DNA of 64,000 nucleotides from a virus. Below, piece after piece: positions 2,455 to 50,951 of this stretch (positions are counted from its first letter, which is position 1; the number at the start of each line of letters is the position of its first letter). A model generated the notes under the pieces. That model saw only the letters and a list, made by a program, of their open reading frames with translations, did not search any database and was not told the origin of the DNA. The stretch lies in IMG/VR virus record IMGVR_UViG_3300045988_077100, positions 1 through 64,000 of that record, one strand, 5' to 3'. Both the position numbers and the translations under genes were made by a program.

Positions 2455-2529
2455 TGGCAGGGATGGCTGGATTCGGACCAGCGCGTGAGGGAGTCAAAGT
2501 CCCTTGCCTTACCGCTTGGCTACACCCCT
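2455..2529 (-). tRNA. tRNA-Gln (UUG)
   Basis: Manual cloverleaf: AGGGGTG/CATCCCT acceptor, GCC/GGC D stem, AGGGA-CTTTGAC-TCCCT anticodon arm, GCTGG-TCCGAAT-CCAGC T arm, encoded CCA. Confidence 0.85.
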
Positions 2530-2888
2530 GTATTTTTACATAGGCTCCCGGCATTGCGCTCCGTTTGGATTGCTTACACAATTAGCCGTACAGAACCGGG
2601 CAAGCATACTGCCCTACACAACGGCCTTGCCCAAGGGCAGCCGTTACCTCACCACTTCCGCATACCTTTCGATGAACACGCCTCGGAGTTCGCTCTGCAT
2701 GGTTCTGTACGCGCTAACCGCGGAACTTTTCAGCCCTGCGCCGGTATGTCGGTCGCATCCGTTTCTTCATTCATAGCCGGAGCCAGCCAAATAATTATTA
2801 TTCGGCCTGCCGCTTTCATACAGCGCACAGGCAAGCCCCTTGTAGCGGTCTTACCCTTCCGCGGCGCCGCAATGCGGTAGCATACATC
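2530..2888 (-). ncRNA. candidate structured RNA spacer between tRNA genes (family unknown)
   Basis: No credible ORF. An 11-bp perfect long-range inverted repeat (2587-2597 / 2701-2711) encloses nested helices. Several further local hairpins. Confidence 0.3.
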
Positions 2889-2965
2889 TGGCAGGGACGG
2901 TTGGGAATCGAACCCACCCAAGCGGTTTTGGAGACCGCCTCGCCAGCCTTGGAACATTCGCCCCT
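2889..2965 (-). tRNA. tRNA-Trp(CCA)-like, non-canonical (no D stem, irregular T-stem junction)
   Basis: Acceptor AGGGGCG/CGTCCCT + G + CCA. GCGGT-CTCCAAA-ACCGC anticodon arm. GTGGG-TTCGATT-CCCAA T arm with a G.A pair and one extra nt. No pairable D stem was found. Confidence 0.45.
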
Positions 2966-3105
2966 ATGTTTGTCTGTCTTTCCAGACTGTCACCGCTGCG
3001 TGTCGGCTGCCTGCGGTTGGCCCCCATAGGTACACGTTTCTGTTGCCCTGCCGCGCCCATCTCCGGGCAACCCGTTTGTGATTGTACTTCTCATGGCGCT
3101 GGATG

Positions 3106-3180
3106 TGGTGCAGACGGCTGGATTTGAACCTGCATCGTTCCCCACTTCGGGGGTGCTCTAACCTACTGAGCTACGTCTGC
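3106..3180 (-). ncRNA. tRNA-like module 2 (canonical D arm, truncated anticodon arm)
   Basis: GCAGACG/CGTCTGC acceptor + ACCA. GCTC-AGTAGGTTA-GAGC D arm. The anticodon arm is reduced to CCCC-CGAAGT-GGGG (14 nt instead of 17). The T arm has one A.A mismatch. Confidence 0.5.
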
Positions 3181-3371
3181 AAATGTCCCCTCTGGGACAC
3201 TTCGTCAGGGAACCCTGGACGAGAGGTGCGAGGGGTCCTATGCCCAACCGGAATTGCACCGGGGCGTCAAGGGCAAGTACCAGTTGCCGGAGACGAGCTG
3301 CTTTTGCGGGCCGCAGCTTATATATTTATGGAGCACTGGCAGAGACGCATCACCCAAAATGCTCCCCGCCA

Positions 3372-3487
3372 TGGTGCAGATGGTGAGGATTTGCACCTCA
3401 CATAGCCTAACAGTGTCGGCCTCCACCGCTTTGCTGGGCGGCACCCGAACTGTCATTTGTAGCGTCTACCTATTCCGCTACATCTGC
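3372..3487 (-). ncRNA. tRNA-like module 3 (116 nt, extended rod replacing the anticodon arm)
   Basis: GCAGATG/CATCTGC acceptor + ACCA. Class-II-like D arm TAGCG-GAATAGGTAGA-CGCTA. (G)TGAGG-TGCAAAT-CCTCA(C) T arm. The central arm ACAGT-TCGG..CCGC-CCAGCAAA-GCGG..CCGA-ACTGT is about 44 nt. Confidence 0.45.
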
Positions 3488-3644
3488 ATATAGATGCCGG
3501 ACTTTCCCGGCGGTCATGTCGCTCAGATTCTCCGAGAATACCGTCCCGATAGCGGCTGTATCAACCCGCCGACTCCACTGCCAGATATGGAGGTTTCATT
3601 CCCACTACGGTTTATAGAGTAACCACCTCTTATGTGGGCGGGCA

Positions 3645-3713
3645 TGGTGCAGACGGCCGGAGAGGTCCCCGGCTACCGGGTGGAAAGGACAAAAGCACCG
3701 GTTGGACATCTGC
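3645..3713 (-). ncRNA. tRNA-like module 4 (69 nt mini, two hairpins between the acceptor strands)
   Basis: GCAGATG/CGTCTGC acceptor (one G.U) + ACCA. Internal hairpins ACCGGTG..CACCCGGT and CCGGGG-ACCT-CTCCGG. No D arm and no T-loop consensus. Confidence 0.4.
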
Positions 3714-3825
3714 ATAGACCCGCCTTGTTTGCGCCATGGCGGGTGATGTGGCGGCCCGACTTTCCGGGCTGTCATACACATTCAGGAGGCTTTGCAATCC
3801 ATGCAGGGCGCTGCTCGTGCACCCT

Positions 3826-3899
3826 TGGAGCGGATAATGGGAATCGAACCCACCTTCGCGGCTTGGGAAGCCGCCGTTCTACCGATGAACTATATCCGC
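3826..3899 (-). tRNA. tRNA-Gly (CCC)
   Basis: Fully canonical manual fold: GCGGATA/TATCCGC, GTTC/GAAC, GCGGC-TTCCCAA-GCCGC, GTGGG-TTCGATT-CCCAT, T + CCA. Confidence 0.9.
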
Positions 3900-6274: not shown

Positions 6275-7810
6275 TCAGGCGAGTCTGAGGACCTGACGGG
6301 CGGCGCGTTCGGCGTTGTCGGTAAGCTGGCGCTGCCATGCCTGATTTTTCGGAGACCAGCGGAAGCCGTTTCGCTTCAGGGCTGCGCGGGTGTCGGCGTC
6401 TGGGATGGTGTCAAAGAGGATTTGGAGTCTGTTCAGGTCGATATTGCGGACGATCTGGCCACCGTCAAAGGCGGTGCCGGTCTGAGGTTCGGCGGCCTGC
6501 TGTTCTCTGCGGTCAAACTCCGCGAGGCGCTGTTCTGTCCGCTCGATCTTGCCCCGGATGCTGGCCAGTTCGTAAGCGGGGAAGGGGGAACCGTACAGGG
6601 AGATGGGGGAGCCGTCACCGGAGGCGAACACGCCGGGGCGGGTCAGCCATGCGCGGTTTTTCTCGCTGAGACCGGGGCAGCCTTCCAGCGTTTTGTGCTT
6701 GCGATAATAGGCGTTGGCGGTTTTGGCGTCCTCCAACATCTGGCGTTGGCTGTTCAGGCGCTCGGTGAGCATTTCACGGGCGTGGGGGTCGGCAAGGTCT
6801 ACCGGGCCGGTGCCGACGCTGCGGATCTTGTCCAGAATCGCCTCAATCTGCCGGTATTCCTCCCACAGGGAGTCCTCGCGGGACATTTGGCGGTTGTGCT
6901 TGCGCATATTGAAGTTACCCGCCCCGGCGATAAACTGGCTGGGATAGCTGGCCTGATTGCGGTTGTAATCGTTCGTCCACTGGGCAAGGCGGCGGGCGTA
7001 GCTGTTCAGCAGGGCGTCCAGCTTGTCATGGTAAAAAGCGCTGACGCGGGCCTTCTGCTGTTCTACCATCTGGGCGGCTTTGTTCACGGAATTTCGATAA
7101 CTGGCCGTGGCGCTGCCGGGTTTGTAGTCGCCCATGTGAATGCAATAGTGGGCGTTCCGGGCGGTTTCCTCGTCGATGGGACCATAAGGCGGGACCGTTT
7201 CAGGCCGATTTTCCGGGGTGGGCTGTTCTGCCTGTTCTGCGGTGGTGGCCTCCGGCTGTTCTGCGGGTGCTTCCGCGCCTGCGCCGGTGGCGGGGGGCTG
7301 CTGTTCGGGCTGTTGGGTGGTGGCTGCGCTGGGCTGTGCGGTGGCGGCGGTGGGCTGTTCAGCCCGGAGACCGTCAGCAACGGAGCGGTAAAAGGCTTGT
7401 GTTTCTTTCGTGTCCTTGACGGTCTGGCAGTCCTCGCCAAAGTCCCATGTATAGCGCTTGATTGTCACGTCCAGGCTGTCCGCCTCGCTTGCAAAATAGG
7501 CGGCAATGTGTTCCGTGTGGGGGAAGGCCTTGATTTCGATTTCCGCGTGCTCCCGGTTCCACTCGTTGGCGGCGGCCCGCTTGTCCCGGCTGTTCACAAA
7601 GGCGGAAATGGGCCAGAAACAAAGATTGTCCTTTGCGGTGCTGAGTTCGCCGTTGCGCTTGATACGGCGGAGGCAGTGATCCCGGCCGCTCCAATTCGGA
7701 TCGCCGGGGGTGTGCTCGACGAAGTAAAGGCCGTTGTCATTCTTGAAGTATGCGCCGGTGATCTCCACCACGTCGCCGGTTTTCATGGTGCGGTTGTTCT
7801 TGTCAGTCAT
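6275..7810 (-). CDS. DUF3560-like protein typical of conjugative-element/plasmid cargo (511 aa)
   Basis: The C-terminus ...IVRNIDLNRLQILFDTIPDADTRAALKRNGFRWSPKNQAWQRQL resembles the DUF3560 signature as I recall it. Central Pro/Gln/Ala-rich linker. CAGGAGG RBS. Confidence 0.65.
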   Translation of the reverse strand: MTDKNNRTMKTGDVVEITGAYFKNDNGLYFVEHTPGDPNWSGRDHCLRRIKRNGELSTAKDNLCFWPISAFVNSRDKRAAANEWNREHAEIEIKAFPHTEHIAAYFASEADSLDVTIKRYTWDFGEDCQTVKDTKETQAFYRSVADGLRAEQPTAATAQPSAATTQQPEQQPPATGAGAEAPAEQPEATTAEQAEQPTPENRPETVPPYGPIDEETARNAHYCIHMGDYKPGSATASYRNSVNKAAQMVEQQKARVSAFYHDKLDALLNSYARRLAQWTNDYNRNQASYPSQFIAGAGNFNMRKHNRQMSREDSLWEEYRQIEAILDKIRSVGTGPVDLADPHAREMLTERLNSQRQMLEDAKTANAYYRKHKTLEGCPGLSEKNRAWLTRPGVFASGDGSPISLYGSPFPAYELASIRGKIERTEQRLAEFDRREQQAAEPQTGTAFDGGQIVRNIDLNRLQILFDTIPDADTRAALKRNGFRWSPKNQAWQRQLTDNAERAARQVLRLA

Positions 7811-16526: not shown

Positions 16527-17690
16527 TCAGGCGGGCGCACAAGGCTTTTTTTCGAGGGGATGTTCTGCGTCCGAATCGGGGTCATGGCCTCGGTTTTTGT
16601 AAAACCGCTCCATTTTGTTTTCGGCGTTGAGCCGATCTTCTTTGGCAAGTTTTAGGTAAATCTTGTGAACGGTGTTGTGGTCGCTCCATCCGCCGATTTC
16701 TTGCACCTCCAATTCGCTAAGCCCCAGATGGAAACCGAGGGAGGCAAAGGAGCGGCGAAGTCCGTGAACACCGCACTCAGGAAGGTCATTCTTTTTGCAG
16801 ATCAGGTTAATGCCGCCGCGCAAAGAATTTTCAGTACAATCCAGAATGGGAAGGCCGGCACTTTTCCTCTGTGAAAGCAGGTCATAAAGGGCGGGGATCA
16901 TAATTTGGATCGTGCGTTGAGACGAAACGTTTTTGTTAGTCTTTTTATACACAAAGTCTCCGTTTTTATCCATGACCCGTGCGCCCTGAATTTTGATCCG
17001 CTTTTTCTTTAAGTCGATGTTTTCCCAAGATAGGCCGAATATTTCAGACCGGCGGAGGCTGTGAAGGGCCAGCAGCGCGCCCACTTCAAACCGGCTGCCG
17101 CTCACAGCGTCCACAAAAACAAGGATCTGCTGGTAGGTCAGCCAGGGAAGGTCTTTTTTTATGCTTTGAGGGAGACGGACTTCCGGCGGAGCGATGTGAT
17201 TATCCCGCATCACGGTGCAAACAAGGCCCCATGAATTATACACTGTTTTAGGGGACAGGGTTTCACTGGCTTCGTCGATCTCCTGCTGCCAATTTGATAT
17301 ATCCTGTATTTTGGCATTGATCTTTCCGGGGAAGCGATTCTTTTTGATACACTCATATCCCCGGATCGTGGATGGAGACAAAGATTGATTTTTTTCCAAA
17401 TAACTGTCGATTGCCTGAAGAAGCGTGAGACTGCATTTTGCGTCCTTTTTAGCTTCCAGAAAGCCGGCGCGGATGGCGCGGGCCTTGGCTTCGCAGAGAG
17501 CGGCGGTATCTTCCGTGATACTTTGCCCTTCGGCCCGCAGTTCGATGTTCCACTTGCCGGACTTCAACTGACGTGGGGAGGGGACTTTGATCTCGTCCTT
17601 CTTTTTGCGCTCCCTAATCTGGCGTTCGCCGCACCACTTGCAGAAGATAGAATCATCATCAATGACACGCTTACAGTTTTTGCATTTCAT
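16527..17690 (-). CDS. int: tyrosine-type site-specific integrase with N-terminal zinc ribbon
   Basis: Start at MKCKNCKRVIDDDSIFCKWCG with GGGAGG RBS. C-terminal catalytic pattern ...HSLRRSE...HGLRRSFASL...GWSDHNTVHKIYLK (R..HxxR..Y). Confidence 0.9.
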   Translation of the reverse strand: MKCKNCKRVIDDDSIFCKWCGERQIRERKKKDEIKVPSPRQLKSGKWNIELRAEGQSITEDTAALCEAKARAIRAGFLEAKKDAKCSLTLLQAIDSYLEKNQSLSPSTIRGYECIKKNRFPGKINAKIQDISNWQQEIDEASETLSPKTVYNSWGLVCTVMRDNHIAPPEVRLPQSIKKDLPWLTYQQILVFVDAVSGSRFEVGALLALHSLRRSEIFGLSWENIDLKKKRIKIQGARVMDKNGDFVYKKTNKNVSSQRTIQIMIPALYDLLSQRKSAGLPILDCTENSLRGGINLICKKNDLPECGVHGLRRSFASLGFHLGLSELEVQEIGGWSDHNTVHKIYLKLAKEDRLNAENKMERFYKNRGHDPDSDAEHPLEKKPCAPA

Positions 17691-17710
17691 GCGCACACCT
17701 CCCGTGTGTA

Positions 17711-18163
17711 TCAGCCGTGGAAGAACCCAAATTCCAGACAGTGCAGATCCAGATAAACGGCGTAAGCCACGACGAAGATCAAAAGGACCAACATCCATCG
17801 CAAAAGACGGTCCCGGTTGCGGATGCCGTGGGACTGACGTTCCACAAATTCCCGGAGAAGTTCGTTCTGGGCGTTCAGGCCGTTGATCTCCTGACGGTAG
17901 ACGTCCAGTTCCCGGCTTACGATCTCCTCAATGGTTTCTGGGGGTGTAGGATCTTCCGCTGGCTCCATTCCCAAAAACTGATCAATGGAAATTCCGAGGA
18001 AAGCGCAGATGGGTCCAAGGGTTTCCAGTGTAGGGGAATGGGTGGTAGCGCGGAACATATTGTTCACCGTGTTGAGAGGAACTCCGCTGCCGTCCGCGAT
18101 TTCCTTGTTTGTGATGTGTTTTTCCTCTTTTGCCGCGCGGCACTGATCAATCAATGACAGCAT
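17711..18163 (-). CDS. XRE-family HTH regulator with C-terminal transmembrane anchor
   Basis: HITNKEIADGSGVPLNTVNNMFR HTH. C-terminal LLRWMLVLLIFVVAYAVYL TM segment. Confidence 0.7.
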   Translation of the reverse strand: MLSLIDQCRAAKEEKHITNKEIADGSGVPLNTVNNMFRATTHSPTLETLGPICAFLGISIDQFLGMEPAEDPTPPETIEEIVSRELDVYRQEINGLNAQNELLREFVERQSHGIRNRDRLLRWMLVLLIFVVAYAVYLDLHCLEFGFFHG

Positions 18164-19110: not shown

Positions 19111-19290
19111 ATTTTGAGCATTATGCCGAAACTAACCAAAATCAGGAAAACGGGTTGACAACCTGACCACAGTCAGGTATCATAAGCGTATAAACTGATT
19201 TTGGTCAGTTAATTTGACGGCGGTGAGGTTAATGGATTTTGCTGGTTTGGTCACTTGCATCATATCATTAAACCTAACCAAAGTCAACAT
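19111..19290. promoter_or_regulatory. immunity-region operators
   Basis: Palindromes ACCTGA-N6-TCAGGT (19161-19178) and AACTGA-N6-TCAGTT (19193-19210), plus related half-sites TGACCAAA/TTTGGTCA. Confidence 0.6.
19155..19183 (+). promoter_or_regulatory. early rightward promoter
   Basis: TTGACA, 17-nt spacer, TATCAT. The spacer is itself an operator palindrome. Confidence 0.65.
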
Positions 19291-20587: not shown

Positions 20588-20827
20588 ATGCCGCGTGTAA
20601 AGCTGGGGCGGAAGCCCAATGACGAGGTTTTGATCTCACTGCTGTGGGGCAGACAGGCCGCCATGGGGATGCCGGTGGGCACCATGGCGGAAAAGGCGGG
20701 CATGACGCCGCAGACCCTACGGGCGCGGAAGAAGTCCCCGCAGGACTTTTCGCTGAAGGAACTGCTGAAGCTGGGACGCGCACTGGATATTCCCATTGAG
20801 GAACTGCGGGATGCCATCCGCTATTAA
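20588..20827 (+). CDS. small HTH-like protein (79 aa)
   Basis: AGGAGG RBS. MAEKAGMTPQTLRARKK HTH-like segment. Confidence 0.5.
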   Translation: MPRVKLGRKPNDEVLISLLWGRQAAMGMPVGTMAEKAGMTPQTLRARKKSPQDFSLKELLKLGRALDIPIEELRDAIRY

Positions 20828-20846: not shown

Positions 20847-20981
20847 ATGACACCGACGCATATCAGCGCAAAGACGCTGGAAGCCATTGAAAAGGCGCTG
20901 GCCCACGGAGACCGCGTAGAGCTGATCCCGGTGAAGGACGGCGTGAAGGTGATCCGCATCCGGCGGGACGAGATCAAGTAA
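20847..20981 (+). CDS. small hypothetical protein (44 aa)
   Basis: Start at MTPTHISAK with AGAGGA RBS. Confidence 0.4.
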   Translation: MTPTHISAKTLEAIEKALAHGDRVELIPVKDGVKVIRIRRDEIK

Positions 20982-21007
20982 GCCTATGGGAAAAGTGAAT
21001 GAGATGC

Positions 21008-21086
21008 CTGTCCCTAAGCGTTGGGGCAGAGGAGCAGAGCGTTGCTGACGCCGGAATGACCGGCGTGGGCAGCGCTTTTTGTTTTT
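21008..21086 (+). ncRNA. conserved two-hairpin element, copy A (HP1 with UAAGCGUU loop + terminator hairpin)
   Basis: HP1 CTGTCCC-TAAGCGTT-GGGGCAG. Spacer AGGAGCAG. A 17-bp hairpin with AATGA loop, then TTTTTGTTTTT. Confidence 0.55.
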
Positions 21087-23996: not shown

Positions 23997-24986
23997 ATGA
24001 AGGCAACCAACAGCTTTGCGGCCCAGACCCAGCGGGACAAGCCCACGTTTTCCATGGCGATCGCGGCCCCCAGTATGCAGAAGATGATCCAGAGCGCTCT
24101 GCGGAGCGACAAGGCGGCGGCGCGGCTGACCTCCACGCTGATCTCCGCCGTGAATGCCAGCGAACAGCTGAGAGCCTGTGAACCCAGCACCATTGTGGCG
24201 GCGGCACTTCGGGGCGAGGGCATGGGCCTGATCTTTGGCCATGGCTACTATGTGGTGCCCTACGGGACTACCGCTACATACCTACTTTCGTACAAGGGCT
24301 ATATCCAGCTTGCCATGTCCACCGGATTTTATGCGGACATTGACTGCGTGGAAATCCGTGAGGGCGAGATCGAGGGCCGTGACCGGCGAACCGGTAAGCC
24401 CATCGTGAACCTTGCCAAGTACGAGAGTGACGAGGAACGGCAGAGTAAGCCCATTATCGGCTACTACGGCTACTTTGAATTGAAGGACTCTACGTTCCGC
24501 TACGAATACTGGCCCATGGACCGGCTCCTGCGCCATGCGGACCGGTACTCCAAGGCGTTCAGCTATGAGAAGTTCAAGGCCATGCAGAGCGGGGAAATGA
24601 ACCCCAAGGACGTGGAAAAGCTGCTGAACGGTTCCCCCTGGTACGATCCCAACGGCGGGCAGGACCGGATGTGCCGCAAGACGATTCTGCGGCAGCTGCT
24701 GAACAGCGGCTATGCGCCCCTGTCCCCGGAGGTCAAGACCCAGCTCATGGAGGAAGCCAGCGCCGAGGACGAGGGCATGATCCCGGATATGCCCATGCCG
24801 GAGCGCACGGTGGCATCTACCGGAGAGGTGGTGGAGACCGCGCCTGCGGCTGTGGAAGCCCATCAGGAGACCGTGGAGGGTGACGCCGGTATGGTTATGC
24901 CCCCCAAGTCTGAAAAGACCGCAGAGACCCCTCAGAAGGGGCAGGACGAGGGAATGGACTATGCGGCCACCTTCTTTGGGGAATGA
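23997..24986 (+). CDS. recT: RecT-family single-strand annealing recombinase
   Basis: ...CEPSTIVAAALRGEGMGL...YVVPYG...LSYKGYIQLA...MCRKTILRQLL is typical of RecT. Confidence 0.85.
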   Translation: MKATNSFAAQTQRDKPTFSMAIAAPSMQKMIQSALRSDKAAARLTSTLISAVNASEQLRACEPSTIVAAALRGEGMGLIFGHGYYVVPYGTTATYLLSYKGYIQLAMSTGFYADIDCVEIREGEIEGRDRRTGKPIVNLAKYESDEERQSKPIIGYYGYFELKDSTFRYEYWPMDRLLRHADRYSKAFSYEKFKAMQSGEMNPKDVEKLLNGSPWYDPNGGQDRMCRKTILRQLLNSGYAPLSPEVKTQLMEEASAEDEGMIPDMPMPERTVASTGEVVETAPAAVEAHQETVEGDAGMVMPPKSEKTAETPQKGQDEGMDYAATFFGE

Positions 24987-25511: not shown

Positions 25512-26360
25512 ATGGCGAAAGAAAACCGGTATTTCTGGCTGCGGCTCTATGATGACTTCTTTACGTCCAAGCGGATCAAAAAACTCCGCAAGCTGGCAGG
25601 CGGCGATACCTACCTCATCATTTACCTGAAAATGCAGCTCATTGCCATGAAGCACGATGGGATTTTGCAGTGGTCAGGTCTCGACGATAACTTTGCCGAT
25701 GAGCTGGCGTTGGAACTGGATGAGGAACCGGCCAACGTGGAGGTGACGATCAACTACCTTCTTTCCTGCGGCTTGGCGGAGACCTCGGATGACGTCACGT
25801 TTTTCTTCCCGTATGCGGTGAAAAACGTTGGGAGCGAAGGTTCCTCCGCGAAGCGGATGAGGGAGTCCAGAGCAAGAGCAAAGCTGAGAGAACCGTCACA
25901 ATGTTCGAACGATGTGCGAACATTGTGCGAACATCGTTACGGAGAGAAAGAGATAGAGAAAGAGATAGATATAGAAGATATATCTTCTTCACTACGTTCA
26001 GAAGATATGGGGGGCGGTGCCCCCAGTGAGCCAAAGGCACCGGAGAGCAGAAAGCGGACGGCGGTGAAATTCGTACCGCCCACGCTGGAAGAGGTGGAAG
26101 CCTACGCCGCGTCCCGGCAGAGCACGGTGGACCCCCGTCGGTTTTTTGAGTATTTTAACACCCCGGACGCGCAGGGCCGCTCGTGGAGGGACAGCAAGGG
26201 GAACCCGGTGAAGAACTGGAAGCAGAAGTTCCTCACATGGGAAGGCCGGGACGGCGGGAAGGGAAAGCCCGCCCCGGCGGCATCCCAGACGGACAAGCCC
26301 CGGAAAAGCTGGACGGAGCTGGCAGCGGAAATGGACGCGGAGGAGGGCCGCACAACATGA
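25512..26360 (+). CDS. phage replisome organizer
   Basis: The N-terminus MAKENRYFWLRLYDDFFTSKRIKKLRKLAGGDTYLIIYLKMQL is the phage_rep_org_N signature. Confidence 0.75.
   Translation: MAKENRYFWLRLYDDFFTSKRIKKLRKLAGGDTYLIIYLKMQLIAMKHDGILQWSGLDDNFADELALELDEEPANVEVTINYLLSCGLAETSDDVTFFFPYAVKNVGSEGSSAKRMRESRARAKLREPSQCSNDVRTLCEHRYGEKEIEKEIDIEDISSSLRSEDMGGGAPSEPKAPESRKRTAVKFVPPTLEEVEAYAASRQSTVDPRRFFEYFNTPDAQGRSWRDSKGNPVKNWKQKFLTWEGRDGGKGKPAPAASQTDKPRKSWTELAAEMDAEEGRTT
25900..26010. repeat. iteron/palindrome cluster inside the replisome-organizer gene (candidate ori)
   Basis: Tandem TGTGCGAACAT x2 (25913, 25924). Tandem GAGAAAGAGATA x2 (25943, 25955). A 14-bp perfect palindrome GAAGATATATCTTC (25974-25987). 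Confidence 0.5.
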
Positions 26361-30784: not shown

Positions 30785-31093
30785 ATGAGGCTGGTTGATG
30801 CAACGCCTTTGGAGTGTCAGGCCAAAGAGCGCAAAGAAAACGAGTGGAATCAACGTGTTTCCCCAACGTCTTGGGCACACGCCGAAGAAAGTTTTTTACA
30901 CCGGATTGAAGATGCTCCCACCGTGGATGCCGTGGTCGTGACGCGGTGCAAGGACTGCAAGCATAAAGGGTGGGTACAGGAGCCGTGTCACGGTAAGAGC
31001 GTTGATTATTGCAAAGTCTGGGACTGCACTTTGCGGAATCTGGAAACTACATTTTGCAGCTACGGCAAGAGAAAGGACGGCGGGGCTGAATGA
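30785..31093 (+). CDS. Cys-rich hypothetical protein (102 aa)
   Basis: Start at MRLVDATPLE with GGAGGTG RBS. CKDCKHKGW...CHG...CKVWDC. Confidence 0.5.
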   Translation: MRLVDATPLECQAKERKENEWNQRVSPTSWAHAEESFLHRIEDAPTVDAVVVTRCKDCKHKGWVQEPCHGKSVDYCKVWDCTLRNLETTFCSYGKRKDGGAE

Positions 31094-31233
31094 AACGGAA
31101 AGACTGGATGATTATAGCCTTTTGGACGCTGGTTATAGCCGCGGGCATTGCGTTTATCGTGTTTTATTTCAAAAGCATTTTAACCGCCGACATTCCACTG
31201 TGGCTGAAACTGCACTTGTTAAGGGGGAAGTAA
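31090..31233 (+). CDS. small membrane protein (47 aa)
   Basis: Own translation MKRKDWMIIAFWTLVIAAGIAFIVFYF.... ATGA overlap. Confidence 0.4.
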   Translation: MKRKDWMIIAFWTLVIAAGIAFIVFYFKSILTADIPLWLKLHLLRGK

Positions 31234-32241: not shown

Positions 32242-32299
32242 AAAAATTTTCAAAGTGGCTACTAAAGTTTACCAAATTAAGAAAACCTTGTGGAATAAT

Positions 32300-32342
32300 A
32301 GAGAGTGAGAAGAAATAAATTCTTTTCACTCTCTGTTTTTTT
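32300..32342 (+). terminator. strong rho-independent terminator 18 nt upstream of the terminase-module start codon
   Basis: 15-bp stem AGAGAGTGAGAAGAA/TTCTTTTCACTCTCT followed by GTTTTTTT. Confidence 0.8.
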
Positions 32343-32360: not shown

Positions 32361-33326
32361 ATGGAACTGGAACCGATGGATACGGCGGAACTGACTGCAC
32401 AGCAGGAACGCTATGACGCCATTGCCCGTGCCACCAGCGACAGCCTTGCCCTTTTTTACTGCTGCATTGAATTTGACCGGCCATTCGATATGCTGGCGGT
32501 GCCAAAAGAACCGGACGTGGGTGAGAAGTGGATCGCCTATCTGGACAACCTGCGGCTGAAAAAGCTGGACATGCGGCGGGGGGAACCCCTTGGGTTTCTG
32601 GACGGGCTGACGGACATTACCAAGATTTTTGGCGAGGGGTTGACCGCCGGGGAATTTACCAAGGCGGTTGGCAACGAGAAGTCCGCCCGGAACCGGAAGG
32701 TGGGGACGGCACAGCAGCGGAAGAACTGGGGCGAGAACTCTGCGAAGAACCCCTACACATCTGAGGACTATGACGAACTGGATCGCATTTACGAGGCACT
32801 GTCCAGCGACCTGATGGCAGTTGGCGGCGTGAGCGTGAAGCAGGAGTTCATCCTGCGGGACTGCGCAAAAATGACGCTGGACCGGGACAAGATGCGGGCC
32901 ATCGGCCAATATGACAAGGCGGCCAAGCTGAACAAGATGGTTCAGGACAACCTGTCCAGCGAGGGACTGCGGAAAAAGGACGCGAAGCCCATTGACGATC
33001 TGCGGATCGACAGTCTGGTGGAGGCACTGGAAAAGAAGGGGCTTTTGAAAAACGGGAAACAATGTGCCCCGGACGAGATGTTCCGCATTTTGTTTGGGCG
33101 ATCCTGCAAATACCCCTACACCATGGACGCGGCGGAGCAAATGATTTTAATTAACGAAAACCGGATGCGGCAGAACGAGGGGCGGCCTGAGCTGACCACC
33201 CTGCCGCCGGAGATGCGGCTGCGGGACGAGTTGGGGGAGTTTGCGGAGGAACCCAATGATCAGGAGAAGGAGGCATATCAGCGACTCGGACTGGTGAAGA
33301 TGCCTCCGGCGAAGAAAAAGCGGTAA
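32361..33326 (+). CDS. putative terminase small subunit (position-based)
   Basis: 321 aa, immediately upstream of the large terminase. No motif recognised. Confidence 0.4.
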   Translation: MELEPMDTAELTAQQERYDAIARATSDSLALFYCCIEFDRPFDMLAVPKEPDVGEKWIAYLDNLRLKKLDMRRGEPLGFLDGLTDITKIFGEGLTAGEFTKAVGNEKSARNRKVGTAQQRKNWGENSAKNPYTSEDYDELDRIYEALSSDLMAVGGVSVKQEFILRDCAKMTLDRDKMRAIGQYDKAAKLNKMVQDNLSSEGLRKKDAKPIDDLRIDSLVEALEKKGLLKNGKQCAPDEMFRILFGRSCKYPYTMDAAEQMILINENRMRQNEGRPELTTLPPEMRLRDELGEFAEEPNDQEKEAYQRLGLVKMPPAKKKR

Positions 33327-33335
33327 GGAGGAGCC

Positions 33336-35189
33336 ATGGCACGGCGGGCCGGAAAGGCATGGACAAGTTCGCAGGGCTGGGTCAGCGTGAAGCCCACGGC
33401 AGAGCGGGACTACACGGACTATGAGGACGCCTGGTGGGCCTTCCTGATCTGGGTGTTTCGGTGGTATCCGGACAAACTGCTGGACCTTGTGCGGAGCGAC
33501 GAAGCGGACTTCGCCAACGAGGAGATCATGCAGCGGGTGATGGTGCGGGCCTACGCCAGGAAACGGGAGGTGGCGATCACCGGAACCCGAAGCCTGACAA
33601 AGACCAGCACAAAGATGAAATACGCCATGGTGAACGGGTTGGTATGGCCGGGGACCCAGAGCGCATATTATGGTCCAAGCTACAAACAGCTTGCCGCCAT
33701 CGGCGGAAAGACCTACCACCAGATTGAGCACGATTACCCCATCCTTGCCAAGCACTGGCGGGTCAGTGCGGAGAGCAAGGATGACTTCAAGATCGAGACG
33801 GACGGCGGAAGCGCCTTTTACATCTCCGCCATGCGCGGAGACAACCTGCATGACGTGACGGCGGAGGAATACGCACAGGAAGAAACCCCGCCCTTTGACT
33901 ACAACGAGTATTCCACGGTAGTGCTGCCGGCCGTGCGTCTCTGGCACAACATCAGCGGTGAGCGGGACAAAAACTTCGTAGGATACAAGAAACACGCCAT
34001 CACCAGCGCAGGGCGCAAGCAGAACCACGCCTTTCAGACCCGGTGCAAGGTGATGAAAAAAATGACCCAAGGGGAAAGCGCCTTTGCCATTGACATTTCA
34101 TGGGAGAGCATCGTGCTCATGCAGATGCGGCCCTATGAATGGGCGCAGGGACTCCGGGAGGAGCTGACGGCGGAAAAGTGGATGCGGGAAATGGAGAGCC
34201 GGTTTACCGGCGCAGACGAGTTCCCCGTGCTTTCCGACGAAGTGCTGACGGATTCCCAGCGGGTGCTGGTGATGGAGACGGAGCACTGCTGCAAGGACCC
34301 GCACCCCAAGCTGGACCCGGAGGAAGTTATTTACATCGTGGGCTATGACGTTTCCTACGAGGATTCGGCAAAGAACGCCAAATGCGCCTGCGTGGTGATA
34401 AAGCTGACCCGCCAGCGGGAATACCTGAAACGGGACCGCTTTTTGAAGCAGCTGGTCTACATTGACGATTGGCCCCCACCGGACAAGAGCAAGGCGCAGG
34501 CACGGCGGCTGAAGGCGATATGGAATCGGTTCTGCTATGACGGAAGCCAGACCTACATCTCCATTGACTCGTGGCAGTACGGGCGCGGGGTGCTGGAAGA
34601 TTTGATGACCGACTTGGGAGACGGCCTTCCGCCCCTGTGTGTGAAGAACCACGCGGCCTATGCGGCGGCGGAGCTGCCGGGGGCCATTCCGGTGATCTAC
34701 CCCATCAAAGCAGGCGGCACCGGCGTGACGGACCCGGACTTTGAAATGCTGAAATACGCACAGACGGAGTTTGAACACCACAACGTTGAATTGCTAACGC
34801 TGAACGCCAACGAGGGCGTGGAGGCGTATAAGCGCGCCCACCGCATCCGGGACGACGACCGGGACTACCAGTTCGCACAGCCCTACCAGAAGTGCCGGGA
34901 ACTGTCCGGCCAGATACAGAACCTGAAGCTGGTGCCCAGCGGGGCGGGGATGAGCGAGAAGCGCATTTCCAAGGCCATTCAGCGCGATAGCTGGTCCGCC
35001 ACGAAATATGCCCTGCGGCTGGCCCAACTGATTGAGCGAGAGGAACTGCTGACGGAGATCCACGGAAAGAACAAGAGCGACTGGGCGTCGGCGCTGGATC
35101 GGTTCAAGGAAAACAAAGTGGCTCCGCCTATCAGCACCGGAAGCAGCGGACGGCTGGTGACGGCGCGGCGGGGAGGCCGGAGGTTTTGA
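33336..35189 (+). CDS. terL: terminase large subunit
   Basis: 617 aa. ATPase-like N-terminal half (VAITGTRSLTKTST; ...AEEYAQEE). Size and position upstream of the portal gene. Confidence 0.75.
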   Translation: MARRAGKAWTSSQGWVSVKPTAERDYTDYEDAWWAFLIWVFRWYPDKLLDLVRSDEADFANEEIMQRVMVRAYARKREVAITGTRSLTKTSTKMKYAMVNGLVWPGTQSAYYGPSYKQLAAIGGKTYHQIEHDYPILAKHWRVSAESKDDFKIETDGGSAFYISAMRGDNLHDVTAEEYAQEETPPFDYNEYSTVVLPAVRLWHNISGERDKNFVGYKKHAITSAGRKQNHAFQTRCKVMKKMTQGESAFAIDISWESIVLMQMRPYEWAQGLREELTAEKWMREMESRFTGADEFPVLSDEVLTDSQRVLVMETEHCCKDPHPKLDPEEVIYIVGYDVSYEDSAKNAKCACVVIKLTRQREYLKRDRFLKQLVYIDDWPPPDKSKAQARRLKAIWNRFCYDGSQTYISIDSWQYGRGVLEDLMTDLGDGLPPLCVKNHAAYAAAELPGAIPVIYPIKAGGTGVTDPDFEMLKYAQTEFEHHNVELLTLNANEGVEAYKRAHRIRDDDRDYQFAQPYQKCRELSGQIQNLKLVPSGAGMSEKRISKAIQRDSWSATKYALRLAQLIEREELLTEIHGKNKSDWASALDRFKENKVAPPISTGSSGRLVTARRGGRRF

Positions 35190-35560: not shown

Positions 35561-37316
35561 ATTGAGGTCGGTGCAGTTCGCCTCGTACCCGAAGATATTC
35601 GGAAGGCTGCGGGAACTGGCGGCACAGTACGGCGACCTGCCCATGGACGCCGTAAGCAGCGCGTTTATGCGGGCGGCCAGCAACACCTACACCCGGAATA
35701 ACCCCTACATTCAGAACCGCCGGGTAAAGGCCATTTCCTCGCTGCCGGTGAATTACAGCAAGGACAAGGTGGCGGAGATGCTCACCGCACCGGACGGCAA
35801 CGAACAGGGCCTGCGGCAGGTGGCCCACGCGCTGGAATGGACGGCGTATCCCCTGTTTCACACCCGGAAGGTGTACACGGAAATGCTGACCTACCACAGC
35901 TACATTGCCCCGGAGTACGCCACAGAGGAAGAAGCGAAGCGGGAGGACTTCCTGCGGGAATGGCAGCTTTTGGACAAGCTGCGGAAAACGCTGGACCCCA
36001 AGGCCACGGCCCATGAGATCGCGGGGCAGGTATTGCAGGAGGGGAAGGTTTTCTACTATCCCCGGGTCAGCGTGGACAAGCCCCACAACAAGGTAAACCA
36101 CGCTTTTTTACAGCAGCTCCCCAGCGACTGGGTAAAGATCGTGGGGTTCAACAACGTGTCGAAATACACGGTGGCGATGAACCTGATGTACTTTATGCAG
36201 CCGGGGACGGACCCCTTGCAGTTCGGAGACCTGCTGCTGCCCTATCTGGATGACTTCTACGCATCGGCGGAGCGGGCACCGGAGGGCACGGGGAAGCGGG
36301 TGATCTTCGCGGCGCGGGACCGGGTGGACCTGAACGTGCTGGAACAGCGGAGGAAGCAGACCGGCGGCCGCTTGGCGGGAGACCCGGAGGTATACTCCCA
36401 GAACGGGCGGTGGTTCTACTGGGTGACGCTGCCGGTGGACAAGATTTTCACCTTTGAGGCAGACGATGTATCCCGGAACGCCATTTCCCCGCTGGCGGGG
36501 CTGTATCTCTCTCTGGTGCAGATGGCGCAGTACGAGCAAATCCAACTGGAACTGGTGCAGAACCCCCTGATCGCCCTGTTTACCGGCGAGATCCCCTACA
36601 AGGATAAGTCCGAAATTACAAGCACAGAGGACGATTACCGGCTTTCCGACGCGGGACGGCGGCTGTTTGAGTACCTGTGGTATCAGATGCTGACAGAGAG
36701 CAACACCAGCGGGATCGGCTGGTTCACGGCCCCTGTGGAAAACATCAAAATGCACCAGTTGGCAGAAGCACCCAGCGCCACCAAGATTTCCGCAGCCGGG
36801 TACAGCTACGCCATGAACAAGGCAGGGCTGTCCGCCATCGTCCCCACCACGGAGGACCCCAAGGCGGGCATCGCACAAATCTCCCTGCAGATCGAGGGAA
36901 AGTTTGCGGAGTGCGTATACCGGGGCTACGAACGGATGATGGCCGCCATTATGGACAAGCTGAATCTGAAATATTCGTGGCGGTTTGAGCTATTCGGAGA
37001 AATCGCAACGGATGATGATTTGCGTGAAAGCCTGCGAAAAGATATGACCCTTGGGATTCTATCCGCCTCTGCGAAATACATGGCGTTATACGATATGTCA
37101 CTATTGGATGATTTGTCATTGAGCAATGCAATCATTGCATCTGGCATTATGGAGAAAAGAATTCCGCTTGCGTCTACCTATACCGGCGGTGGAGATGCAA
37201 ATAAATCCCAAGGGGGAGAGGCAAAAAGAATTATGAACCCCGGGGGGAGGCCAACATCTGGCGGCAAAGTAACAAGCGAGGGACAAGAGGCCGACTTAGA
37301 TACTTACGGGGAATGA
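35544..37316 (+). CDS. portal protein
   Basis: 590 aa directly after the terminase gene. Call is based on size and position. Confidence 0.7.
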   Translation: MDLQTELRSVQFASYPKIFGRLRELAAQYGDLPMDAVSSAFMRAASNTYTRNNPYIQNRRVKAISSLPVNYSKDKVAEMLTAPDGNEQGLRQVAHALEWTAYPLFHTRKVYTEMLTYHSYIAPEYATEEEAKREDFLREWQLLDKLRKTLDPKATAHEIAGQVLQEGKVFYYPRVSVDKPHNKVNHAFLQQLPSDWVKIVGFNNVSKYTVAMNLMYFMQPGTDPLQFGDLLLPYLDDFYASAERAPEGTGKRVIFAARDRVDLNVLEQRRKQTGGRLAGDPEVYSQNGRWFYWVTLPVDKIFTFEADDVSRNAISPLAGLYLSLVQMAQYEQIQLELVQNPLIALFTGEIPYKDKSEITSTEDDYRLSDAGRRLFEYLWYQMLTESNTSGIGWFTAPVENIKMHQLAEAPSATKISAAGYSYAMNKAGLSAIVPTTEDPKAGIAQISLQIEGKFAECVYRGYERMMAAIMDKLNLKYSWRFELFGEIATDDDLRESLRKDMTLGILSASAKYMALYDMSLLDDLSLSNAIIASGIMEKRIPLASTYTGGGDANKSQGGEAKRIMNPGGRPTSGGKVTSEGQEADLDTYGE

Positions 37317-37429
37317 CATGGTTGTCAGCATGGGGATAGGGTAGCTCCCGAAAAGCGGTTGCCTTGCCGCCTTCCCCAGCTTACAAAAAGGCAAATTACG
37401 AAAGGCGGTAATTGAATGTGAGCACTGTC

Positions 37430-38062
37430 ATGGATTTGACCGGCAAACATTTTGGAAAACTAACTGTTATTTGCCGAGGCCCGGATCGTATAAATAAAAG
37501 CGGGAAAAGTGTTCGATGGAAATGTATCTGCGAATGCGGGGTAGAAACACTCGTTGATGGGCGTCACCTAAAAAATGGGCACACAAAATCGTGCGGATGC
37601 GAAAAGCAAATATCTGCGCAAAAAATGGGAAAACAGCAAGCAACGCACAATCGATATCCCACAAGGTTATATCACATTTGGAACGGGTTAAAAATGCGTT
37701 GCCAAAACAAAAACAATGACAGATTTTCCGCTTATGGAGGAAGAGGCATTACCGTCTGTGCAGAATGGGCCGGTAGTTTTGAAACGTTTCGAGATTGGGC
37801 ACTTGCCAACGGCTACCGGGACGATTTAAGCATAGACCGAATTAACGTAAATGGGGACTATTGCCCTGAAAATTGCCGATGGGCCACGATTGTGGAGCAA
37901 AACAACAATAAAAGGAACAACCGTTTTATCACATTATGCGGAAGCACAAAAACGGTTGCCGAATGGTCAAGAGTAGTAGGAATTGCAAGCGGAACAATCA
38001 TTGCGAGATTGCGAAAAGGGTGGGGAGAATACGAAGCCGTTTTCACACCTTTATTGCATTGA
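37430..38062 (+). CDS. free-standing Cys-rich DNA-binding/endonuclease-like protein (homing-endonuclease-type insertion)
   Basis: MDLTGKHFGKLTVI...WKCICECG...SCGC...LYHIWNGLKMRC...YGGRGITVCAEW...DLSIDRINVNGDYCPENCRWAT. Visibly lower GC than the flanks. The track start TTG at 37412 is an alternative. Confidence 0.5.
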   Translation: MDLTGKHFGKLTVICRGPDRINKSGKSVRWKCICECGVETLVDGRHLKNGHTKSCGCEKQISAQKMGKQQATHNRYPTRLYHIWNGLKMRCQNKNNDRFSAYGGRGITVCAEWAGSFETFRDWALANGYRDDLSIDRINVNGDYCPENCRWATIVEQNNNKRNNRFITLCGSTKTVAEWSRVVGIASGTIIARLRKGWGEYEAVFTPLLH

Positions 38063-38102
38063 CACCTACGGCGGATAGCCGAAGAAAAAGTGAACAGAGC
38101 AC

Positions 38103-38177
38103 CCCGCTCTAAGCGGTGAGCGGGAGGAGCAAAGCGTTGCTGACGCCGGAATGACCGGCGTGGGCAGCGCTTTTTTT
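38103..38177 (+). ncRNA. conserved two-hairpin element, copy B
   Basis: HP1 CCCGCTC-TAAGCGGT-GAGCGGG. Spacer AGGAGCAA. The terminator hairpin is identical to copy A, then TTTTTTT. Confidence 0.55.
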
Positions 38178-49729: not shown

Positions 49730-50857
49730 ATGATCACTTTTACCGACAAGAGACTGTACGCCAAGGGCATTTGCACGGCGCAGCTTCAGGACCCCTCCAC
49801 CGGGGAGATTCTGAGCCAGAGCGACAAGTTTTCCACCGGCAACATTCAGTTCTCCGCCAACACCGACCCCCTGCGGGCGGGCCTTGGCAACGGCATCGCC
49901 ACCATCATCGCCAGCGACAGCGACACGCAGGTGAACTTCACCCGCGCGGACTTCGACCTGATGACCAAGATGATGGCTGTGGGCGGCGCCGTGAACTACA
50001 ACGCCGTTTCCCCCGTCTGCCAGACGGTGGAGGCCACGGGTACTTCCTTGAAGGCCGACGTGAGCAAGCTGGTGCCGGTGGCCCAGTACGGCTATTCCAA
50101 CATTTTCTGCTACGTGCAGGAGGTGGGTGCTGCGTCCTCCTACGCTGTGGGCGGCGTCCCCTATCCCATTGACCCCGCCACCGGCGCCATTACCGGCTTC
50201 ACCGCTGAGAACGGCAAGAGCTACAAGGTGTGGTACTTCGCCAAGAAGCCCGCGGCCCAGGTGGGCATTGTGAACGGTGCTTTCAATGGCCGCATCGTCC
50301 ACTTCACCGCTCAGATCGCCGTGTATCAGAACGTGTCCGGCAAGAATAAGGGCACCCGTTGGGGGTGGGGCTATTTGATCGTGCCCCGCCTGTATCTGAA
50401 CCCCGAAGGGGCCAACACCACCGGTGACCAGACCAACTACGACACCACCACCATCACCGGGCGCGCCATCAACGAGGACGCCGATGTGATCTCCGCTGAG
50501 TGCGACGCCTGCGGCGGCATGGGCACCGTGGCCTACATGGTGCTGGTGCCTGACGAGGAAAGCGACGAGGTGGCGGGGCTGGCCGTGATCGGCGGCGTGG
50601 TGAGCGTGGCTGCCAGTGGCACTGCCCCCGTGAATGCCAAGTTGGTCATGAAAAACGGCGAACTGGTGACGCCCTCTCCCGCAAGCCTGCTGAAGTACAC
50701 CGTGACCGCCGGGACTGCTACCGGGACCACGGTCTCCAAGGACGGCATTGTGACCGCCGGGAGCACGCAGGGCACCGGGAGCATCGCCATCCAGTATCCC
50801 GCCGAGGGAGCCGCCAAGTACACCGCGCAGGCGGTTCTGGAAGTCACCGCCGAGTAA
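49730..50857 (+). CDS. major tail protein with C-terminal Ig-like domain (position-based)
   Basis: 375 aa. Precedes the chaperone-like gene and the tape measure gene. The C-terminal part is Ig-like. Confidence 0.55.
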   Translation: MITFTDKRLYAKGICTAQLQDPSTGEILSQSDKFSTGNIQFSANTDPLRAGLGNGIATIIASDSDTQVNFTRADFDLMTKMMAVGGAVNYNAVSPVCQTVEATGTSLKADVSKLVPVAQYGYSNIFCYVQEVGAASSYAVGGVPYPIDPATGAITGFTAENGKSYKVWYFAKKPAAQVGIVNGAFNGRIVHFTAQIAVYQNVSGKNKGTRWGWGYLIVPRLYLNPEGANTTGDQTNYDTTTITGRAINEDADVISAECDACGGMGTVAYMVLVPDEESDEVAGLAVIGGVVSVAASGTAPVNAKLVMKNGELVTPSPASLLKYTVTAGTATGTTVSKDGIVTAGSTQGTGSIAIQYPAEGAAKYTAQAVLEVTAE

Positions 50858-50875
50858 GGGACACACCAAAAACGC

Positions 50876-50951
50876 CTTATCCTAAGCGTTGGATAGGATG
50901 AGCCGAGCGGGGCTGACTGCCGGGGAAACCCGGTGGTCGGCTCCGCTTTTT
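50876..50951 (+). ncRNA. conserved two-hairpin element, copy C
   Basis: HP1 CTTATCC-TAAGCGTT-GGATAGG. Spacer ATGAGCCG. A 19-bp hairpin with GAAA loop, then TTTTT. Confidence 0.55.

Follow-up and report, generated by a model that had tools for sequence, protein, structure and literature searches.

Three twin-hairpin elements in a Clostridia prophage

The 64,000-nucleotide (nt) stretch of viral DNA analysed here (positions 1 to 64,000 of IMG/VR virus record IMGVR_UViG_3300045988_077100; hereafter, the window) contains a siphovirus-like, temperate prophage with a Clostridia host and carries, on its plus strand, three intergenic copies of a structured RNA element: copy A (21007–21086), copy B (38102–38177) and copy C (50875–50951). 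All three are co-directional with the surrounding genes, and directly upstream of copy A lies the last gene of the early operon, which encodes a protein of about 44 amino acids (20847–20981, plus strand; MTPTHISAKTLEAIEKALAHGDRVELIPVKDGVKVIRIRRDEIK; alternative upstream starts at 20796 and 20811). Below, the elements are related to the Rfam RNA family gut-2 and to this small protein, a candidate for their regulator.

As an initial annotation of the window had described, the three plus-strand copies share one architecture, in which a first hairpin (HP1) is followed by a conserved stretch and then by a 17–19-bp hairpin (HP2) with a T-run. HP1 is a 7-bp stem with the loop UAAGCGKU (U-AAGCGK-U) in all copies (loop letters TAAGCGTT in A and C, TAAGCGGT in B) and is preceded by an invariant C. 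Together, these span 21007–21029 in copy A (C at 21007; 5′ arm 21008–21014, loop UAAGCGUU 21015–21022, 3′ arm 21023–21029; arms CTGTCCC/GGGGCAG), 38102–38124 in copy B (C at 38102; 5′ arm 38103–38109, loop UAAGCGGU 38110–38117, 3′ arm 38118–38124; arms CCCGCTC/GAGCGGG) and 50875–50897 in copy C (C at 50875; 5′ arm 50876–50882, loop UAAGCGUU 50883–50890, 3′ arm 50891–50897; arms CTTATCC/GGATAGG). The 8 nt directly 3′ of HP1 (AGGAGCAG in A, AGGAGCAA in B and ATGAGCCG in C), previously taken for a spacer, proved to be a purine-rich linker of 3 nt (AGG, 21030–21032, in copy A) and the 5′ arm of a covarying second hairpin, P2, which has 4 bp and a hexaloop, RAGYGK (RAGCGK in the window copies), resembling the loop of HP1. 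P2 occupies 21033–21046 in copy A (AGCA 21033–21036 and UGCU 21043–21046 around hexaloop GAGCGU 21037–21042), 38128–38141 in copy B (AGCA 38128–38131 and UGCU 38138–38141 around AAGCGU 38132–38137) and 50901–50914 in copy C (AGCC 50901–50904 and GGCU 50911–50914 around GAGCGG 50905–50910). Each element ends in an intrinsic terminator with a stem of 17–19 bp followed by 5–7 U (copy A, 21038–21086, with HP2 at 21038–21076 and the U-run at 21077–21086; copy B, 38133–38177, with HP2 at 38133–38171 and the U-run at 38172–38177; copy C, 50906–50951, with a 19-bp HP2 at 50906–50947 and the U-run from 50948).

The pattern CTAAGCGKTGNNNNNGAKGAGC occurs three times in the window against 0.04 expected occurrences, and a covariance model built solely from diverse relatives (model R1) recovered exactly sites A, B and C from the 64 kb at 69–75 bits (next match, 15 bits). 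At the three copies, the plus strand folds at approximately −50 to −52 kcal/mol (z = −5.8 to −7.0) and the minus strand more weakly (−33 to −42 kcal/mol), an advantage that fits the earlier claim of G.U pairs existing only in the plus-strand RNA. A MITE-like or strand-neutral repeat, which would be expected in both orientations, in non-transcribed places and with terminal inverted repeats, does not fit: the window copies and some 150 related loci all proved to be co-directional with their flanking genes. Single-stranded DNA hairpins of the ssoA-like CS-6 loop (TAGCGT), integron attC-like and HUH-site kinds were also considered and dropped, given the U-run, the G.U strand asymmetry and the co-orientation with transcription. 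When GTDB was scanned for the exact pattern, one metagenome-assembled genome of an uncultured Clostridia member had three copies and the remaining matches were due to chance, which suggests that the exact sequence type is narrow.

As the initial annotation had noted, the copies lie at module boundaries. The lysogeny module holds an integrase gene (16527–17798, minus strand) along with a gene for a helix–turn–helix (HTH) protein, and face-to-face promoter-like sites (19155–19183 on the plus strand and 19287–19259 on the minus strand) mark the lysogeny/lytic switch. The early rightward operon encodes, in order, an HTH protein, an Ant antirepressor, a 93-amino-acid open reading frame (ORF), a Cro-like HTH protein and the small ORF ending at 20981; genes for SLT, YqaJ, RecT, SSB, a replisome organiser and a methylase follow 3′ of copy A. 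Copy B separates the portal gene and its inserted HNH gene from the head genes (38182 onward). Copy C lies between a 375-amino-acid gene (49730–50857) without a Pfam match, interpreted by position as that of the major tail protein, and the chaperone and tape-measure genes. No promoter-like site was found 3′ of terminators A, B or C, which suggests that the downstream modules depend on read-through.

P2 and the terminator are mutually exclusive

Relatives of the element were collected by pattern. An exact-pattern scan of IMG/VR returned at least 119 loci, most of which, at three per contig, are orthologues of A, B and C in close relatives, and in these HP1 changes via G.U intermediates (CTGTCCC/GGGGCAG, CTGCCCC/GGGGCAG and CTGTCCC/GGGACAG); a megablast search of 25 kb against GenBank phages gave marginal matches only. 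A second RNA-pattern scan, which left out the window clade, yielded 72 true elements, whose HP1 stems include more than 20 unrelated ones. When 57 distinct sequences were aligned without gaps, all 7 pairs of HP1 were changed on both sides and 98% of cells were paired, compared with 31–50% in shuffled and slid controls; the invariant C at position −1 of HP1 was present in 79 of 80 cases. The earlier claim that the HP1 stems differ and yet pair thus extends from the three window copies to homologous phages, in which both the loop and the stem pairing are conserved, and this covariation bears out its reading of a selected RNA structure rather than a plain terminator.

P2 was paired in all 57 sequences, and two of its four pairs covary: the middle pair (GC in 18, CG in 16, AU in 15 and GU in 8) and the loop-closing pair (CG in 48, AU in 7 and UA in 2), with the columns of the 3′ arm unconstrained by any search pattern. 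A K-turn or C/D-box-like reading of the GAGC...CUGA letters was rejected by eye, as the covariation fits the Watson–Crick register of P2. The terminator stem also covaries (40 relatives), and the middle base of the P2 3′ arm covaries with its terminator partner too (UA 16, GC 11, CG 7). Covariation of the same base within P2 and within the terminator is the signature of two exclusive helices; indeed, the loop and 3′ arm of P2 are the first bases of the terminator 5′ arm, so that the two cannot coexist. The free energy of P2 alone ranges from −2.2 kcal/mol (copy A) to −5.3 kcal/mol (copy C), and the terminator fold is approximately 30 kcal/mol more stable, which makes termination the default state and means that P2, being far weaker, can win only kinetically and only when held by something.

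The initial annotation had envisaged competition between the AAGCG of the HP1 loop and the terminator 5′ arm for the 3′ arm CGCUU, and an RNA-only switch of this sort, with the loop pairing to the 3′ base of the terminator as a pseudoknot that weakens it, finds the necessary complementarity in 89% of cells (40 diverse sequences). However, two-sided changes are absent from every pair, and each of 500 shuffles does equally well. Moreover, variants with AGAG/CUCU (L082, L157, L188, L207 and L208) retain the loop UAAGCGUU and leave the mismatch uncompensated, although the true terminator pair is compensated in the same variants; elements with the loop variants UAAACGUU (L141 and L150) keep the 3′ arm unchanged; and in L133 the terminator stem does not include the second motif. 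We consider such a switch very unlikely, and the second AGCG is instead conserved because it is the loop of P2. Of the earlier suggestion of a cis-acting attenuator, antitermination site or protein-binding site, the anatomy of a read-through switch or protein-binding site therefore stands and the specific switch mechanism falls.

The copies also exchange sequence. HP2 of copy A (21038–21076) is identical to HP2 of copy B (38133–38171), and site A in most relatives has another hairpin (AGCGTTGCTGATGGAACCGG...), which indicates that copies in this phage have recombined or undergone gene conversion. Together with the location of the sites at module borders, such recombination would be expected if the elements were simply intrinsic terminators, each stabilised by a hairpin upstream, and had been kept as DNA 'boundary sequences' that promote module exchange by recombination. 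That explanation appears extremely improbable: the loops are kept over more than 20 unrelated stems, the G.U-mediated covariation works on the plus strand alone, P2 covariation conflicts with a pure terminator role and, as described below, a version without a terminator exists.

Several other features of the window were recorded. An int-alpA RNA (RF02996, 37329–37391, 40.9 bits) and an HNH homing-endonuclease gene (37412–38062, phrog_374) form one cassette (37293–38078) at the extreme 3′ end of the portal gene; close relatives are without it, and the last portal codons are duplicated, with a recoded gacttagatacttacggggaatga ending the portal gene and the original cacctacggcggatag persisting after the HNH gene. 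A distinct, conventional terminator-like site marks another module border (32297–32337): its 18-bp hairpin, A/U-rich and very strong, carries a U-run and lies just upstream of a gene at 32361 and ahead of a 617-amino-acid gene (33336–35189). The latter is read as the terminase from its position before the portal gene; it has no Pfam match and matches only PHROGs of unknown function. Outside the prophage, a tRNA gene cluster (Gln, Trp and Gly; 2455–3899, minus strand) includes an odd tRNA-like gene (3106–3180) with a shortened anticodon loop.

Linkage to a small-protein gene and two read-outs

A profile hidden Markov model of the small-protein family matched the window only at 20847–20981 (E = 1e-25). 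The family (consensus M.EKTIKAIESVLAKGDRVELIPVKDGVKVVRVRREEVK) comprises 388 close homologues and 453 clusters at 50% identity, all 41–129 amino acids long and without fusions, and the window protein matches phrog_29211 (function unannotated) and no Pfam family; a PDB sequence search, Foldseek, Pfam and PHROGs yielded no functional annotation. Its AlphaFold2 model consists of a helix (residues 7–19) and a β-hairpin (residues 22–37; pLDDT 85), and the protein has no Cys or His. Among GenBank phages, tblastn found Chenonceau alone, as a weak match.

The small-protein gene and the RNA are genetically linked, whichever of the two is taken as the starting point. Starting from the RNA, the small gene lay upstream on the same strand in 68 of the 72 loci, at −7 to 1,532 nt; in the remaining four, the upstream sequence is shorter than 520 nt, which gives 68 of 68 with enough sequence. 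Starting from the protein (via eight family members), the RNA lay downstream in 32 of the 32 loci with enough downstream sequence. The pair was adjacent in at least four contexts: 3′ of a Mu-F-like gene and 5′ of a scaffold gene; 3′ of an HK97-type protease gene and 5′ of a capsid gene (L049); 3′ of an LRR protein gene and 5′ of Gp80 (L349); and in an early operon (the window). At the divergent loci L049 and L082, the homologue is directly upstream of an element that is there in the head module. Genomes have one small-protein gene and two to three RNA sites, as expected for a regulator and its operators.

Additional structured sequences were seen near some elements: a GP20-a RNA (RF02991) between element and scaffold gene in L155 (1061–1152; 45.1 bits against a cut-off of 47.2), a skipping-rope RNA (RF02924) near the element in L215 (4410–4506, minus strand; 53.9 bits) and a non-coding stretch of ~260 nt with several hairpin-like segments between the small-protein gene and the element in L147 and L150 (3120–3300).

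Several phages carry a second, divergent twin-loop copy ~5 kb downstream, before the tape-measure region. This second class has HP1, the linker and P2 (GGC[UAAGYGGU]GCC) and no U-run; here, the alternative to P2 is a hairpin, GGUGCC...GGCACC, with the Shine–Dalgarno sequence in its loop, that abuts an apparent ATT start codon, and the UAA of the HP1 loop serves as stop codon for the upstream ORF. Such sites lie at 7365–7436 in L169, 5605–5669 in L194, 4705–4778 in L171, 6230–6294 in L189, 9036–9107 in L159 and 13854–13918 in L354. Both types occur in the Flavonifractor phage Chenonceau (ON453904; host F. plautii), which has one small gene (24619–24753), a terminator-type site before its scaffold gene (26223–26303) and a site of the ribosome-binding-site (RBS) type (31068–31132). 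Such reuse of one sensor for different read-outs is a typical trait of regulatory RNAs that bind a ligand or a protein. A role for the second class as a −1 frameshift stimulator for the tail chaperone was rejected, since inspection of the RBS-class sequences by eye revealed neither a conserved slippery site nor an extended −1 frame.

The same P2/terminator switch might instead be run by a host RNA-binding regulator, by RNA polymerase or by the ribosome (translation-coupled attenuation), with the small gene a bystander. An upstream stop codon often lies 10–12 nt before HP1, or within HP1 or its loop, such that a terminating ribosome could melt HP1, and the small protein has no recognisable RNA-binding fold. 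However, stop-codon distances are scattered from −43 to +14 and 9 of 109 elements have no qualifying upstream ORF, and ribosome-coupled attenuation with a fixed stop-codon distance was accordingly discarded. Among host regulators, those of the ANTAR type employ the same RNA architecture: the targets of EutV, NasR and AmiR are tandem stem-loops with hexaloops, the second of which is exclusive with a terminator, and in both loops the first base is A and the fourth G (Ramesh et al. 2012, PMC3369931). The window element likewise has two small stem-loops with like hexanucleotide loops and a short linker, the second stem-loop exclusive with the terminator, and its weak P2 resembles that of ANTAR targets in needing a bound protein dimer (for the window element, the dimer is our proposal). 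Its loops (AAGCGU, GAGCGU and AAGUGG; that is, R, A, G, Y, G and K at positions 1 to 6) nevertheless do not follow the ANTAR rule, and no ANTAR domain (PF03861) was found in the ~35 phage ORFs of the window or in the small protein. ANTAR sites also lie in the 5′ leaders of metabolic operons, whereas the window sites are inside phage operons with a 40-amino-acid candidate ligand whose predicted fold is unlike ANTAR. Gene and RNA also move together into unrelated contexts, which is hard to explain if the small gene is a bystander; control by another operator thus seems rather unlikely to us.

Relationship to gut-2 and a proposed lytic timer

The initial annotation did not recognise the element as a known family, but it resembles gut-2 (RF02990; gathering score 39.8 bits; model ending before the terminator), which Rfam types as 'Gene; sRNA' without an assigned function and which is not mentioned in the main text of Weinberg et al. 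2017 (NAR 45:10811). A whole-window Rfam scan at gathering scores returned nothing at sites A, B or C. When small regions were scanned, copy C (50873–50920; 27.3 bits, E = 2.5e-4) and copy B (38100–38147; 23.4 bits, E = 2.3e-3) matched over all 48 model positions at sub-threshold scores, and copy A gave no match at E ≤ 10; none of the three window copies thus reaches the gathering score. A bridge is provided by L133, which shares the gene context and scores 48.6 bits with gut-2 and 48.8 bits with model R1; it was the sole match in a gathering-score scan of 15 diverse loci, and six short loci gave no match at E ≤ 1. L133–L140, for which the same small-protein gene lies upstream, exceed the gut-2 gathering score and match R1 at E = 2.6e-11. 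The sub-threshold matches of copies C and B and the bridging L133 place the window elements in a gut-2 superfamily, as divergent members of the gut-2 type.

The two groups are alike in HP1, a purine-rich linker (AAG/RAAG in gut-2), a 4-bp second hairpin and near-identical twin hexaloops, and canonical gut-2 loci, like the window family, have an upstream A/U motif and a terminator overlapping the second hairpin. They differ in the loops (AAUUGG in gut-2; AAGCGK/RAGCGK in the window copies) and in what flanks the HP1 hexaloop (a C-G pair in gut-2; U.U in the window copies). A scan for the canonical gut-2 pattern gave 5 true elements among 116 matches, the others being mostly due to chance. Very divergent homologues of the small protein precede the canonical (AAUUGG) locus L231/L282. 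Three other canonical loci (L277, L293 and L311) adjoin a tyrosine-recombinase-like gene, upstream of a DUF4417-like gene (both identified by eye), and have no detectable small-protein homologue in the 11 kb upstream, making them a possible exception to the linkage.

Read-through of terminators between temporal gene classes, by way of a phage early product or of RNA hairpins, is familiar from N/nut (boxA–boxB) of phage lambda and put of HK022. Both nut and put lie close to the promoter and work a single time, rendering RNA polymerase resistant to terminators in a processive manner; put needs no protein. Copy A is positioned like lambda tR1, after a cro-like gene. The window sensor, by contrast, is attached to and overlaps every terminator, sites B and C lie many kilobases from any promoter-like site, unlike the promoter-proximal nut, and no boxA-like conserved element was seen at the window sites (by eye, against the consensus). 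Another parallel, closest for the RBS-linked variant, is the Com/mom system of phage Mu, in which a very small protein is encoded directly upstream of an RNA site and its binding to a hairpin is thought to remodel an adjacent inhibitory structure, turning on the downstream gene (PMC6483171). The gene-then-site order is shared, but Com is a zinc finger with a single hairpin site and a translational read-out only; the small protein, with neither Cys nor His and no Pfam match, is not a Com-like zinc finger and has no sequence similarity to Com.

Considered together, we propose that each copy is a cis-acting gut-2-type switch on an intrinsic terminator, with the small protein as the most likely factor, a reading to which we assign a probability of roughly one half. 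A factor, most likely the ~40-amino-acid helix and β-hairpin protein encoded at 20847–20981, would, probably as a dimer, bind the two similar loops of the nascent transcript before the terminator 3′ arm is made; by locking P2, it would block the terminator (or RBS hairpin), and RNA polymerase would read through. Accumulation of the small protein would then give access first to the recombination and replication genes, by opening terminator A, and subsequently to the head genes, by opening B, and to the tail chaperone and tape-measure genes, by opening C, making for a local, site-by-site timer of the lytic programme. More tentatively, and at somewhat less than even odds, the whole ~40-amino-acid family (phrog_29211 and its divergent relatives) may be an unrecognised minimal phage antiterminator and translational activator that reads gut-2-type twin hexaloops as a dimer and so would open terminators or RBS hairpins.

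Several observations weigh against this proposal. The protein is near-neutral in charge (counted from its sequence), its predicted fold had no Foldseek neighbour with E < 0.4, and no similarity to known RNA-binding folds was detectable with Foldseek or Pfam. Hexaloops differ among the sites of one phage (AAGCGU, GAGCGU and AAGUGG), and no covariation between protein and loop specificity could be demonstrated. Conserved synteny could explain part of the linkage, since most members share the Mu-F-like to scaffold neighbourhood, and the canonical gut-2 locus L277 has no small-protein homologue in the 11 kb upstream. A terminator directly before capsid genes would also be stoichiometrically odd unless read-through is efficient.

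Further adverse evidence favours a small RNA gene, or a stable 3′-end fragment, acting in trans (for example, as a twin-loop decoy titrating the small protein or a host protein), with the terminator merely setting the RNA 3′ end. In addition to the Rfam type of gut-2, canonical gut-2 loci have a TATAAT box 14–19 nt upstream of HP1, and together these make an independent small RNA possible. A conserved A/U-rich motif, T[AG]AATAYT, 5–12 nt upstream of HP1 in most members (for example, L156, L182 and L131) resembles a −10 element and might favour the same reading, as may the tandem element copies in L174, L215 and L231. This motif often holds the stop codon of the upstream ORF, yet it is also present without an ORF. 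A promoter at this position was rejected because a conserved −35 element is lacking and the window copies (20995–21007 and 38090–38102) have a degenerate form of the motif and, moreover, no promoter-like site. P2 also covaries even though it destroys the terminator, which a mere 3′-end hairpin does not require, and the tape-measure variant has no terminator and overlaps the ribosome-binding site. On balance, we judge the trans-acting RNA unlikely.

The gut-2 motif itself was already known; new here are the terminator- and RBS-coupled switch and its linked 40-amino-acid protein partner. For gut-2, the analysis supplies a host, namely siphovirus-like temperate phages that infect gut Clostridia; a genomic setting, at the boundaries ahead of the replication, head and tail genes; a class of mechanism, in which an antiterminator hairpin excludes a terminator or RBS hairpin; and a candidate protein partner. 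In Chenonceau of F. plautii, one protein gene and two RNA sites are available in an inducible, sequenced phage with a cultivable host. If the 40-amino-acid protein is indeed the ligand, it would rank among the smallest known RNA-binding gene regulators, and the compact protein–RNA switch would be usable in synthetic biology. The orphan gut-2 would then have both a function and a partner, with the protein as a master timer of replication, head and tail expression in temperate phages of gut Clostridia, and phages would have a third route, beside N/nut and Q, for timing their genes by antitermination.

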